Positions 52,459 to 61,456 of a stretch of 64,000 nt of DNA are shown piece by piece. The notes beneath the pieces are model-generated. The model had not been told where the DNA came from. It ran no database searches and worked only from the letters and a program-made list of their open reading frames with translations. Position 1 is the stretch's first letter. The number at the start of each line of letters is the position of its first letter. The stretch is from an uncultured candidate division Zixibacteria bacterium (GTDB lineage Bacteria > Zixibacteria > MSB-5A5 > UBA10806 > 4484-95), in assembly GCA_963668625.2 (NCBI GenBank), contig CAXXKA010000008.1, forward strand, positions 1,248,001-1,312,000, read 5' to 3'. Position numbers and translations under genes: made by a program.

Positions 52459-52710
52459 TTATGGACATTTTCTTGCGGAACAACCTACAACATTAAAATC
52501 ATAAATTCTCTTTTCTGGGTTAGCCTCGCGGCGACTAATTTTCGCTTTATTGCACGCATCTCTTTCATTTCTTGCACTTACAACGGTAATATAAACACGT
52601 TGTGTATCAGCTATGTTGTTTTCGTTACTGGGTGGATCAAATTTTATTTTATTTTTTTCAGTCCACTTAGGAAAAGGTTCATAAATAATCTCGACACAGA
52701 ATTTCGGCAT
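52459..52710 (-). CDS. Hypothetical 83-aa protein in the AT-rich islet
   Basis: Open frame in AT-rich DNA with AAGGA upstream of the ATG; no recognised motif. Confidence 0.6.
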   Translation of the reverse strand: MPKFCVEIIYEPFPKWTEKNKIKFDPPSNENNIADTQRVYITVVSARNERDACNKAKISRREANPEKRIYDFNVVGCSARKCP

Positions 52711-52783
52711 TAAAATTTCCTTTATTTTTTATTGGTGGTTTTAAAATTAACTTATAACTTAAAGGGATTAGCTTTTTGTCGAA

Positions 52784-54076
52784 CTAGTCCACCAATACTT
52801 TTTCTATTCGTGGGTGAAAATCTTTTAATGATTTGCCAATCCCTTTGGCGGACTTTAGAAAGTGTTGCTTTACGTCTTCTACAATAATTTCAATACCAAT
52901 CCTATAAGCTAAATTTTCAGATATGCGAGGAGAACACATTGTAAGTAAGTTCCGCATGACATTCCAGCGATTGTGAGATGAGCCTAATTCGGCTGTAGCA
53001 ATTGCTGCGGCAGCCTTGCACTCTATATTACCTAAATTATATATCATTTCAAGTCTGTTGATAATTACATCGCAATATGCAAAATCAAATGAGCCTTTGG
53101 CCCATTCACAGTACATAAGTGCTATTTTATACCACAAATCACCATCGGCGTCAAAAATATCTTGAATCCGTTTTTCGTCGAGTTCTACGCAAATTACGTT
53201 TATATCTTCTTCATTTGCTTCTGAAGAAATATATCTACTAAAGTTTAGCATTGTTTCATCATCCCAATCAAAGATGTTATTCAATTTTTCAAGCCATTCT
53301 GTTGTTGAAGGATTTGATTGATGTGTTGATGGGCTTGATAAAATTGTAAGTAATGCTCCACGAAGTATTGAAACATTTTGAAAACGTTTTTCTGGTTCTT
53401 TTACAGTACACCTTTCTATTATAGTCCCAATCGGTCCCTCGCATGTATGTTGTTGATATGGAATCCGCGCATTTGGTCCATCTCCATATACATCATGAAG
53501 TATCGCTCCAAAAGCATAAATATCTACTTTTTGTGTTGAGTGTTTAAAATCTAACACTTGTTCAGGCGCACAATAAGGAGCACTTCCCCAAGCTGACCTA
53601 GAAGAAGTAAATGTTGATGTTTCAGGTAACACAAGCCCGAAATCAGATAGTTTCCATCTCTTGTTATGTAAAAGAATGTTTTGGGGTTTTAAATCCCTGT
53701 GAGTATAACCAAGAGAATGCAACTCTTCAAGAGCGAATAGGATTTCTGCAAGTTGTTCCGTTAAATCTTTACCGTCTTGTTTAGATTCATTTATTTCATC
53801 TTCAAAGTTCCGGTCAGCTAATGGCATTGTAAACCAAGGTGCATTGCAATCAAGATCAAAATCTAAAATGGGAATAAATGATTGACTTTCTAAGGATGAT
53901 TGAATTTTTACTTCTCGTTTGAAACGTTTTTTTAACTTGTCTTGATTGCTAGCTAACAAAATGTCTGGTCTTGGATCGAAAACTTTTCGTGCTATAGTAT
54001 TACCTGGGCTTTCTTCAAGATATTCGACTCTGGCGAAGCCCCCCCGACATATTTTCTTTATATTTTTGTTATTCAT
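52784..54076 (-). CDS. Hanks-type Ser/Thr protein kinase with C-terminal helical domain, soluble
   Basis: RGGFARV, ARK, RFKRE, HRDLKPQNIL, DFGL, GSAPYCAPEQ, DIYAFG; no TM segment. Confidence 0.92.
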   Translation of the reverse strand: MNNKNIKKICRGGFARVEYLEESPGNTIARKVFDPRPDILLASNQDKLKKRFKREVKIQSSLESQSFIPILDFDLDCNAPWFTMPLADRNFEDEINESKQDGKDLTEQLAEILFALEELHSLGYTHRDLKPQNILLHNKRWKLSDFGLVLPETSTFTSSRSAWGSAPYCAPEQVLDFKHSTQKVDIYAFGAILHDVYGDGPNARIPYQQHTCEGPIGTIIERCTVKEPEKRFQNVSILRGALLTILSSPSTHQSNPSTTEWLEKLNNIFDWDDETMLNFSRYISSEANEEDINVICVELDEKRIQDIFDADGDLWYKIALMYCEWAKGSFDFAYCDVIINRLEMIYNLGNIECKAAAAIATAELGSSHNRWNVMRNLLTMCSPRISENLAYRIGIEIIVEDVKQHFLKSAKGIGKSLKDFHPRIEKVLVD

Positions 54077-54132: not shown

Positions 54133-54230
54133 TGCTCATGTCTATCTTAATAATATCACCCATGAAACTATTATTGCATTATGGATGTTATAACTCGCAG
54201 TGAGAAAATTGAATTTATCGGGAGGATTAA

Positions 54231-54791
54231 ATGAGGAAAATTCTTTTCGGGCTCTTTATCATGACAATCGGGCTGGCGCTGGCTTGCGGCTCCTCGGATG
54301 ACAGCGCATCAAAGCAGGATGGCGGTTCGACCGAAATGGCCGCTTCCAACCTGGAGACATCCGGCAAAATAAACTGGATGAAATTCGATGACGGCTTAAA
54401 TGCCGCTACCAATGAGAATAAACATCTGATTGCCTATTTCTGGCGGGATGGCTGACCGTGGTGTACTAAAATGGAGAAGGGTACCTTCTCTGATGGATCA
54501 ATCATTTCTTTCGTAAATGATAATTTCGTTGCCGCTAAAGTAAAGACCACGAATAACGAAACATTCGACACGCCGTTTGGTGAGATGAATACCGGCCAAT
54601 TAGCCAGATCTTTACGTATCCGAGGTGTTCCTGCGGTTTTCTTTTTCGATATCGAGGGCAAACCGGTTTTTAACGTCCCTGGCTATGTCCCACCCGATAT
54701 GTATCTGACGATACTGAAATACGTATCGGAAAAGCATTATATGAACAAAAGCTTCGAGGAATTCCAGGGTTCTGAAAAAACAACGATGTAA
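54231..54791 (+). CDS. Thioredoxin-fold lipoprotein with UxxC motif, probable selenoprotein (186 aa; UGA at 54453-54455 read as Sec)
   Basis: ORFs 54231-54455 and 54471-54791 are in one frame and join as ...HLIAYFWRDG-U-PWC-TKMEKGTF...IRGVPAVFFFD..G....VPGY; GGAGG RBS; lipobox LALAC. Confidence 0.88.
54472..54492 (+). promoter_or_regulatory. Bacterial SECIS-like hairpin
   Basis: GAGAAGG-GTA-CCTTCTC perfect 7-bp stem (54474-54490), extendable by G.U pairs; G-initiated loop 25 nt after the UGA. Confidence 0.7.
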
Positions 54792-54893
54792 TAGTAATAA
54801 AACATTAGTAAAATGCCCATAGTTAACCAGCTATGGGTATTTTTTTGCTTTTTACTGATTGACTTTTCATACGATTGGAGCGTATTTAGAGAT

Positions 54894-55034
54894 ATGCCTG
54901 AAGGATTTGAAGGATTTTTCGCGTCACACCCAATCTGGGCTGTAATATTAATAATATTGATGGCTCTGCCAATCGTGGGGGCTGTAGCCTGGGTAATCCA
55001 AAGAGCGATCAAAAAGCCCAATAAAGATCAATAG
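54894..55034 (+). CDS. Small single-pass membrane protein (46 aa; the ORF track starts it at 54813)
   Basis: MPEGFEGFFASHPIWAVILIILMALPIVGAVAWVIQRAIKKPNKDQ: hydrophobic helix plus basic tail; GGAG upstream. Confidence 0.55.
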   Translation: MPEGFEGFFASHPIWAVILIILMALPIVGAVAWVIQRAIKKPNKDQ

Positions 55035-59171: not shown

Positions 59172-60561
59172 TTATCAACTGATATATAACTGTCCCGGTT
59201 GTGGCAAACCCTCAAATACGCCGGAGGGCGCGCTAACCAATCGATGCGAATACTGTGATCTGGTAGTCAGGCTGGGCGCGCCGGGACGAGTGCTGAAATA
59301 TTTCTATCCCTCGCGTATAGATCAATATGGCGCACGCATGGCCGCCGATCGGTATCTTAAAAAAATAGGCCAACCGTTGACCACGCATATAGCGAGAGCT
59401 CAATCGTTTTATCTTCCCTTTTACAGATTTCGCGGGATCGCGTTAGATTATATTAAACCTAAAGAGAAAATCTCGAGTCTTGGTATTGACCCGTACACAC
59501 AGGTGGTGAACTCCAAAGTTGAGCCTAAGCTGAAAGTTAAGGATTTCGATGTAACGATACCGGGGGAGAACTCTGGAGATTTCGGGCTGGTTTCGTTGGG
59601 TATCCGACCGCAGGCCGTGCCTCTTTATGGTTTCAGCCGTGGGGAGATACCCGAAGATACGATTATAGTCAGCTCCGATATCACCCCGACACAGGCGGAG
59701 GATCAGGCGCTTAAAATGCGGAATGCCAATACTCTTCTATATAGTAAAAACCAGGCGGATATCTCGGCAATGATAGGCGAGAGAGTCACGTCGATTTATT
59801 TCCCGGTATGGGCATTAAGTTACGAGACGCACAACGAGAAGAAAACCGTGTTCGTGGATGCTCTGGCCAAACGGGGGTACCATCAGGCGGAGGGATTTTA
59901 CGAATACACCGGGCCCGTGTCTTCAGAGGTAAACTCACATTTCGTGAAACCCCGCCGCCACCAGTGCCCCAATTGCGGTGATGATCTACAGGAGGATCAT
60001 TTCTCACTGTTTTACCCCTGCAAAAATTGTAACAGGGCTTATGTGCTGGATACGACCGGCGGCTACAGCCAGGTGCATGTCAAGTGCGCCGGCTCCGAGG
60101 TCTGCGCGCCGTTCTGGCGTTTCCCGATGGTGATTGAGGGGGACAGGCGATTTGCCACGGTTGCAGAATTCGCCAAACTACTGCCCAGCGAGATAGCTCT
60201 GTTACGGAAAGAAAAGCGCGATAAACAGTTCTATCTGTACAGTCCGGCTTATAAATCCTCTGATGCCAGGAGCTGGTTTAACAACGCTTATTCGATGCTG
60301 ATAACTCAGCCTCAGCACGAGCTTGGCGATAAACTGCCTGAAAAGCAGTTACCATTCAATATCGATCAATCCGAAGCCCGTCAGATGGCGATATTTTTAT
60401 GGAAGAAATTGGCGATGAAATATGCCTGGGGATTGCCCCAGCTTAAAGATTTAAGCGAATCTCACCTTCCCGAGGGAGAAATCGTTTGGTATCCGGCGCA
60501 AAATTATGCTTTAATACACAAAGTTAAAGGTTTTAAAGAGGTGGATGTTTTAGATACATGA
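59164..60561 (+). CDS. Zinc-ribbon protein (YdjG-like)
   Basis: CPGCG...CEYC, YLPFY, YFPVW, CPNCG...CKNC, PFW; overlaps the SPFH gene. Confidence 0.6.
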
Positions 60562-61456
60562 GCAAAGTCGGAATTATTGATATCGGAACCAATACGGTTC
60601 TCTGCTTAAAAGCCTCGGTTAATGATGACTCCATAGATATACTTTTCGACAGCCGTTTCCATTACCGGGCCGGCCGTCGCCTGGACTCCGCCGGTAATAT
60701 TGCCGAGGAGTACCGTACCGGATTGCGGCGGGCATTGATTTCGGCAATGAGTACGATAGACGACTGCGAAAGTATCAAGATCGTGGCCACTGAGGTATTG
60801 CGTAAGCCTAAAGACGGTGTCTCGTTTGCCAAGGAGCTTTCCTCGGAGATTAACCGTACAATCGAGATAATCGAACCTCAACGAGAGGCCGAGTTAAGCT
60901 ATTTCGGTGCAACACATAATCTGGAGGATATCTCTGGTAAAGTGACCATGATCGATATCGGCGGTGGTTCGAGTGAGCTGGCGGTTGGCAGTAATGGCGA
61001 GCTCGAAAACTGGTCGGGAGTGCGAATGGGGGCTGTCAGTATTAACGAGGCTGTTGGCTATGAAAAGCCTCTCGATGAGTATATTCGTCACGCGGATACG
61101 ATTTTCGATAAATCGGATTTCTCGGGCTTCTATCGCCAAAACCGGCACGAATGATTATCGTTGGCGGGACGGCCGTGACATTGGCGGCGATATTAAATCA
61201 ACAGAAAACTTTTAACGCCGAGGAGATCGAGGGATTCGAATTTAATCGCGAAGTGCTTACCCTGCTTTTAGAAAGCCTCGCCCTGATGTCACACGAAAAG
61301 CGCAAAAAGGCGCTGGTATTCGATCAAGAGCGAGCCGATATTATCGTGGGAGGCGGGGCTATCGTGTTATCATTTATGAACAAATACGACATTTCAACCG
61401 TAAAAATATCTACGAGTGGACTCCGTCATGGATTACTGCTGGAACTGTATGGGTGA
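60558..61456 (+). pseudogene. Ppx/GppA phosphatase family gene split by a frameshift near 61120-61150
   Basis: ORF1 has IDIGTNT, VATE.LR, EAELSYFG, DIGGGSSE; ORF2 has GGT...LAA, RADII..G, GLRHGLL. Together they make one ~300-aa Ppx. Confidence 0.75.

Follow-up and report, generated by a model that had tools for sequence, protein, structure and literature searches.

A probable thioredoxin-fold selenoprotein gene, divided at its UGA codon by gene callers, in an uncultured Zixibacteria bacterium

The 64,000-nucleotide stretch of DNA analyzed here (hereafter the window; assembly GCA_963668625.2, contig CAXXKA010000008.1, positions 1,248,001 to 1,312,000) comes from the genome of an uncultured candidate division Zixibacteria bacterium. 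Positions 54231-54791 on its + strand form one 186-codon reading frame that ends with a TAA codon (54789-54791) and contains a single in-frame stop, the TGA at 54453-54455, which is codon 75. A preliminary description of this DNA, made from the sequence alone, had proposed that this UGA encodes selenocysteine (Sec, or U) at the head of a U-P-W-C redox motif and that a hairpin resembling a selenocysteine insertion sequence (SECIS) element follows it. The codons quoted in that description, TGG CGG GAT GGC TGA CCG TGG TGT ACT AAA ATG, are indeed present and read W-R-D-G-U-P-W-C-T-K-M; with UGA read as U, the wider context of the frame is Y-F-W-R-D-G-U-P-W-C-T-K-M-E-K-G-T-F-S. As argued below, this is very probably a genuine Sec-decoded gene for a thioredoxin-fold protein of the cell envelope, which gene callers have missed and cut in half.

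Specifically, translation table 11 divides the frame into open reading frames (ORFs) of 74 and 106 amino acids (aa), as the preliminary description had anticipated, and in the protein database the product of this locus is represented solely by its 106-aa C-terminal half (P0003). The flanking signals are those of one predicted transcription unit (Table 1). A Shine-Dalgarno-like motif precedes the ATG at 54231, but none was seen on reading the sequence upstream of the internal ATG at 54471, and a terminator-like site was looked for on the + strand between the two half-ORFs and not found, the only terminator lying after 54791.

The two table 11 ORFs are exactly what would be expected if the UGA simply terminates translation and the locus yields two products, a 74-residue lipopeptide and a 106-residue protein initiated at 54471, and the 106-aa piece is indeed called by gene callers both here and in relatives. 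However, besides having no Shine-Dalgarno motif, this piece would be made without a signal peptide, without the first strand of the fold and without the whole redox motif, and the 74-aa piece stops one residue short of that motif. Moreover, the Pfam match described below crosses the TGA, and the orthologues that carry cysteine (Cys) in place of Sec are single proteins. We consider the production of two separate proteins to be very improbable.

Table 1. Features of the putative selenoprotein gene and its flanks, in window coordinates.
Feature	Position	Strand	Basis
Shine-Dalgarno-like GGGAGGA	54220..54226	+	Read directly; 4 nt 5' of the ATG at 54231
Coding sequence, predicted thioredoxin-fold selenoprotein, 186 codons	54231..54791	+	Frame, Pfam match across the TGA, fold model
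Predicted signal peptide, with lipobox-like L-A-L-A-C (Cys19) at its end	54231..54287	+	Read from the sequence
Putative Sec codon UGA (U75), first residue of the U-P-W-C motif (54453-54464)	54453..54455	+	TGA/Cys pairing in homologues
Predicted SECIS hairpin, 9-bp stem 54472-54480/54484-54492, GUA triloop 54481-54483	54472..54492	+	Folding, conservation, consensus criteria
Intrinsic-terminator-like hairpin and T run	54810..54853	+	19 nt past the stop codon

Read through the TGA, the frame encodes a protein of a recognizable family. The Pfam model Thioredoxin_2 (PF13098) matches residues 60-162, across the TGA, with 62.6 bits against a cut-off of 27 (E 5e-17), and Thioredox_DsbH (4.6e-10) and Thioredoxin_7 also match. 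An AlphaFold2 model built from a 23-row alignment has a mean predicted local distance difference test score (pLDDT) of 85.9, rising to about 98 over residues 45-186, and this confident model has a thioredoxin fold. In the predicted structure, U75 comes after strand 65-71 and opens helix 76-83 together with C78, and P134, the putative cis-Pro of the fold, precedes strand 135-139. The U/C75, C78 and P134 positions are invariant in the 23-sequence alignment. Likewise, the RGVP (residues 131-134) and PGY (residues 150-152) segments, which had been cited as signs that the downstream frame continues the fold, both occur in the protein and do not vary across the family alignment. The nearest solved structures are 4fyb/4fyc (a periplasmic thioredoxin-fold protein of Helicobacter pylori), 2ju5 (DsbH) and 1uc7/2fwe-2fwh (DsbD-gamma), all of them proteins of the envelope that we take to function on the reducing side of disulfide exchange.

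The predicted N-terminal signal peptide ends in L-A-L-A-C19-G-S-S, which we take to be lipobox-like, and a Cys occupies the position of Cys19 in many, though not all, orthologues, being followed by G/S-S in several of them. The protein is probably exported and lipid-anchored or membrane-tethered.

A six-frame search of 40 related genomes and the window's own revealed a homologue in all 41 (labels beginning with G, L and P denote genomes, loci and database proteins, respectively, and G000 is the window's genome). Among these 41, the best hit carries TGA only in the genomes of the window's genus, G000, G001 and G002, and the genes extracted from all three read W-R-D-G-U-P-W-C. Scans of contig collections added three more TGA forms from metagenome relatives (L046, L048 and L049), and the same column is therefore occupied by TGA in six independent assemblies: the window, G001, G002 and these three loci. 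The 17 other best hits from related genomes (L024-L040) have C-x-x-C with its first Cys at the U75 column, as do the full-length database proteins P0002 and P0004 (both W-R-D-G-C-P-W-C) and P0006, which are up to 61% identical to the window protein. Cys is thus found at this column in 20 of 20 other full-length homologues, which bears out the earlier proposal that the UGA falls at the first Cys of a thioredoxin CxxC and that Cys and UGA should pair among homologues.

Additional TGA forms may be hidden in the protein database. Five pieces of 104-106 residues (P0005, P0007, P0008, P0010 and P0011) start at the same Met as the window's C-terminal half, to which P0005 is 89% identical. These five relatives appear to have been truncated at the same internal Met, and the pieces probably derive from further TGA forms. 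When 201 genomes were sampled across the phylum, a match at E <=1e-25 was obtained in 38, and TGA occurs in only two of the 38, both from the window's genus.

The recurrence of the codon in five other assemblies makes a sequencing or assembly error at the TGA barely conceivable. Contigs from runs X1 and X2 also read A at 54455 and have zero differences from the window, but we do not count them as independent support because both come from one sample, possibly the window's own source. Run X4 gave no matching contig, and none of the runs listed as containing this stretch was of RNA.

The hairpin downstream of the UGA has the characteristics expected of a bacterial SECIS (bSECIS) element. Its stem, GAGAAGG (54474-54480) paired with CCTTCTC (54484-54490), and its GTA loop (54481-54483) are exactly as first described, and two wobble pairs extend the stem to 54472-54492. 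The distance of 25 nt, which had been given as that from the UGA to the stem, is instead the distance to the loop, and the stem starts 16-18 nt after the UGA. According to the Fig. 2 legend of PMC13188914, the bSECISearch consensus comprises an upper stem of 4-16 bp capped by an apical loop of 3-9 nt that lies 16-37 nt from the UGA. The same source requires that G occur within the first two nucleotides of the loop, usually with G or U after it, and that the minimum free energy be no higher than -7.5 kcal/mol. When hairpin values are compared with these published criteria, all six Sec forms agree with every one that the source gives, and the window hairpin itself has a 3-nt GUA loop and a 9-bp stem, lies at a spacing of 25 nt and, when taken in a 33-nt frame, folds at -10.2 kcal/mol. 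Relative to the consensus, the window element has a minimal triloop, a stem without a bulge and no match to an Rfam covariance model.

All six Sec forms share a stem of 8-9 bp, a GUN triloop and a fixed 25-nt spacing and register, with energies of -9.2 to -12.5 kcal/mol. The Cys forms, by comparison, have a weak hairpin or none (-0.9 to -6.9 kcal/mol), and -7.5 kcal/mol is reached in none of 18 rows. Sixteen of these rows are distinct in this segment, with L042 and L047 repeating L024; L037, whose Cys form did not fit the motif pattern, was left out of this comparison and included in the tree described below.

Across the six Sec forms, 54 of 54 stem cells are paired, and two pairs are compensatory. 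In one of these, in L046, third-position substitutions in a Lys codon (AAG to AAA) and a Thr codon (ACC to ACU) are both synonymous and leave the base pair intact. Only 10 of 500 shuffles match the observed covariation, and slid controls pair in 54-69% of cells. Furthermore, among the 768 synonymous encodings of E-K-G-T-F-S in the window context, 64 fold at -7.5 kcal/mol or lower and 12 are as stable as the observed sequence, which places the window hairpin in the top 1.6%.

The window's genome (4.3 Mb in 10 contigs, 95.9% complete) carries all four of the Sec genes that the preliminary description had named as those to look for, each above its curated cut-off. These are the tRNA-Sec gene selC (68 bits, where the gathering score is 47, with the anticodon tca according to ARAGORN), selA (467.8 bits), selB (347.9 bits, with a match that extends from position 2 to position 579 of the 581-position profile and thus covers the C-terminal part) and two selD genes. 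One selD (L019) adjoins selA (L017) and selB (L009) at G000:C1:154251-158454. This selD has its own in-frame TGA within the motif S-C-A-G-U-A-A-K, which we take to be the Sec/Cys active-site position of SelD, and a hairpin with a 10-bp stem and a GUU triloop lies 33 nt 3' of its UGA. This hairpin is an internal positive control, with the same type of loop as the hairpin of the thioredoxin-like gene. Thus the genome is not one that lacks Sec machinery and whose relatives all carry TGC or TGT, which is the situation that the preliminary description had said would point to a nonsense mutation or an error: the machinery is present and five relatives carry TGA.

The second selD match (L018; G000:C8:1138152-1139072) lies about 110 kb upstream of the window, scores 405 bits and has no TGA. 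Because the match sits inside a 739-residue open frame, the sequence suggests that this selD is fused to another domain.

Leaky read-through of UGA is well established in bacteria, and codon 75 might be read as Trp, Cys or Arg, either by a near-cognate tRNA or through a lineage-wide change of the code. However, TGA still serves as a stop codon in the window, where it closes 13 of the 33 counted reading frames that have at least 300 codons, and therefore has not been reassigned in this organism. Likewise, every other full-length homologue has Cys, to which Sec is chemically analogous, at this column, a SelB-type hairpin lies at the right spacing, and the genome encodes a full selB including its C-terminal part. 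We therefore assign very little probability to insertion of an amino acid other than Sec.

Several observations weigh against decoding as Sec or temper its support. No NCBIfam selenoprotein model matches at its cut-off. The 71-nt stretch carrying the hairpin is no more stable than shuffled sequences (z -0.48; 61 of 200 fold as well), and its thermodynamics are not used as support because the difference is not significant. An Rfam scan of 54200-54850 at E values up to 10 gave no match to the hairpin and no SECIS family, its eight weak matches all being below gathering and six of them falling on the terminator region after the stop. The covariation comes from six related sequences, and both compensatory pairs are contributed by L046 alone. 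Cys forms, too, can fold into weak hairpins (to -6.9 kcal/mol), a consequence of the partial self-complementarity of the E-K...F-S codons. In addition, the gene does not adjoin a ccdA or dsbD gene.

Two further points on this side concern the closest relatives. Cys is found in P0002, which at 60-61% identity is the nearest of the full-length relatives. Moreover, a 184-nt contig from another study (run X3) has TGC at 54455 (A54455C), with four differences from the window and an unchanged hairpin. The TGC in this single contig, at a depth of 2.4, could be an error. Nevertheless, because this near-identical contig has TGC, the phylogeny on its own would allow that TGC changed to TGA only recently in the window lineage.

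To place these relationships in context, a maximum-likelihood tree, unrooted and with the U/C column masked, was computed from 26 full-length sequences. The five C-terminal fragments and the fragment L050 were left out, as were the duplicates P0009, L042 and L047 (which share the protein of L024) and L041 (which shares that of L023). The loci L043-L045 and L051-L054, which are distant and include several DsbD-like fusions, were likewise excluded. All six Sec forms fall within one subclade of ten (support 96/94), in which Sec and Cys forms are interleaved, and the window groups with the Cys form P0002 as its sister (support 99/97). At least four Sec/Cys changes are required on the tree, and the starred branches alone force four. 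On our reading of this unrooted tree, every four-change scenario contains at least one Sec-to-Cys step. Some switches are recent, as seen in the X3 contig described above and in L047 (Cys) and L048 (Sec), which have about 95% DNA identity over 3.3 kb. The differences between L047 and L048 within the gene are TGC/TGA and AAT/AAG, the latter at the base that closes the stem beside the loop.

The Cys state of the sister P0002, the TGC of the X3 contig and the switch between L047 and L048 are also what one would see if the TGA were a recent nonsense mutation from TGC, leaving a young pseudogene whose downstream frame is still intact for that reason. Such a mutation would not account for the retention of TGA in three species of the genus, between genes that share just 48% protein identity and yet are conserved on both sides of the U75 column. 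Nor would it explain why a SECIS-grade hairpin accompanies every TGA form and no Cys form examined. The five database fragments that begin at the same internal Met suggest still more TGA forms, and the Sec machinery is complete. We judge a nonsense mutation to be improbable, and decoding as Sec remains the reading we favor.

The unusual feature of this locus is its labile Sec/Cys state. Loss of the decoding machinery does not determine which form a genome carries, because selA is found in 41 of 41 relatives sampled from this class (above the cut-off in 40), and the organisms with Cys forms are thus Sec users as well. In the review PMC13188914, Sec-to-Cys changes are described as rare outside FdhA and SelD. 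Tentatively, and with the odds somewhat against it, the gene could be a hot spot of reversible Sec/Cys toggling. Under such a scheme a near-SECIS hairpin would always be close at hand, because the M-E-K-G-T-F-S codons are partly self-complementary. One substitution between TGC and TGA may then be enough to flip the gene between its Cys and Sec forms, either by itself or together with one synonymous or K/N change that closes the stem.

If Sec is indeed inserted at codon 75, then positions 54231-54791 would encode, as one gene, an exported thiol:disulfide oxidoreductase of 186 residues that has a thioredoxin fold and Sec as its N-terminal active-site residue (U-P-W-C). At UGA75, SelB carrying Sec-tRNA(Sec) would bind the GUA-triloop hairpin 25 nt 3' of the codon, such that Sec is delivered and termination does not occur. 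Judging from its fold relatives and signal peptide, the mature protein would face the periplasm or cell envelope, and we infer on the same grounds that it is an envelope thiol:disulfide reductase or isomerase. By analogy with DsbD-gamma, DsbH or CcmG-type proteins, it would act on the reducing side of disulfide exchange, with the U75 selenolate attacking substrate disulfides and C78 resolving the selenylsulfide. Two DsbD_TM/CcdA-like genes elsewhere in the genome, at G000:C1:251527 and C1:384627, are candidates for the electron donor, and the protein would probably be recharged through one of these CcdA-like membrane proteins.

The gene order dnaE, SLT/TPR lytic transglycosylase, thioredoxin-like gene and M23 peptidase is found whole in the window, L041 and L042, and the shorter loci L022, L026, L028 and L046 contain parts of this order only. 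Because gene order is conserved, the homologues are taken to be orthologues at one locus. We do not claim the adjacent peptidoglycan hydrolase genes as functional partners, because the thioredoxin-like gene has its own terminator and synteny alone, with no operon evident, would support such a partnership. In the window, a gene for a 430-aa protein with a protein-kinase domain and an ORF of 83 aa lie on the - strand at 52459-54076, between the transglycosylase and selenoprotein genes. In L041, L042, L026, L046 and L022, the transglycosylase gene is immediately upstream of the thioredoxin-like gene, and the 52459-54076 segment looks like a lineage-specific insertion. On the other side, a 73-aa ORF with a hydrophobic stretch (54813-55034, + strand) has its ATG within the terminator stem of the selenoprotein gene. 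If translation began instead at a later ATG, near 54896, the product would be a membrane peptide of 46 residues. The ORF has no family match.

Other in-frame TGA codons were noted in the course of this work. Nine weaker thioredoxin-like matches in the relatives have one in-frame TGA each, within open frames of 279-683 aa (for example, G038:C13:11202-11522, G032:C77:48981-49319 and G031:C1:114431-114820), and further thioredoxin-fold selenoproteins are probably common in this class. Within the window, a Ppx/GppA-family ORF (60558-61154, + strand) ends at a TGA after 198 residues and matches profile positions 4-152 of 285. A Sec codon was rejected in this case because the frame beyond the TGA is full of stops, and the ORF is instead attributed to truncation or a frameshift.

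The gene described here is an ordinary member of an already known type of selenoprotein, because it shares the Pfam family, the motif and the mode of decoding with a listed family. Specifically, 'thiol:disulfide interchange protein' selenoproteins (PF13098, UxxC) are listed as a bacterial family in a table of PMC13188914 and in Table 1 of PMC1794560, and the latter, a 2006 comparative study, places them in Syntrophus aciditrophicus and two Geobacter species. As in those entries, the window protein belongs to PF13098, has Sec first in UxxC and is encoded with a hairpin just 3' of the UGA. The listed members are from Syntrophus and Geobacter, whereas the window gene is from Zixibacteria, and the likeness is one of family and motif. 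Full-text searches that paired Zixibacteria with selenocysteine or selenoprotein gave no paper on the selenoproteins of this group; in one of the papers retrieved, the passages naming Zixibacteria concern a reconstructed genome bin only.

Among characterized thioredoxin-fold proteins, the H. pylori protein (4fyb/4fyc) is the top match by both profile (5e-20) and structure (E 1e-9) and is also exported, but it has CxxC rather than UxxC and is only 20-22% identical to the window protein. DsbD-gamma (1uc7, 2fwe-2fwh), the periplasmic domain of a reducing pathway, has the same fold (Foldseek E ~1e-8, target template modeling (TM) score 0.70-0.76, profile E 1e-12), and the distant homologues L043-L045 of the window protein are C-terminal domains of DsbD-like fusions. 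In contrast, the window protein stands alone, with its own predicted signal peptide and Sec in place of the first Cys. DsbH (2ju5, NF043050), which ranks fourth among the structural matches, is likewise a small, exported, stand-alone thioredoxin-fold protein, and the window protein differs from it in having Sec in the active site.

Among NCBIfam models, sub-threshold matches were obtained to DsbH, DsbD and TsoB, the latter two only through the C-terminal thioredoxin-like part of the profile. Because the curated cut-offs are not reached, the window protein is not assigned as a DsbH equivalog (NF043050; 45.4 bits against 190), DsbD (NF001419; 30.5 bits against 330) or the TsoB selenoprotein (NF045694; 46.8 bits against 805). 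As no curated NCBIfam selenoprotein model covers this gene, annotation pipelines will go on missing it.

Our knowledge of how Sec is decoded is unchanged by this gene. Reading its UGA as Sec nonetheless restores a complete, conserved envelope redox protein from what is a 106-residue fragment in the database, and adds a selenoprotein to a little-studied uncultured lineage. If the gene does toggle between its two states, then strains of a single species would be expected to differ in which of the two alleles they carry, perhaps following the supply of selenium in the sediment, and the locus would offer a natural setting in which to measure how Sec and Cys compare in fitness. Closely related Sec/Cys pairs such as those seen here could be used, as a natural experiment, to ask why cells bear the cost of selenocysteine.

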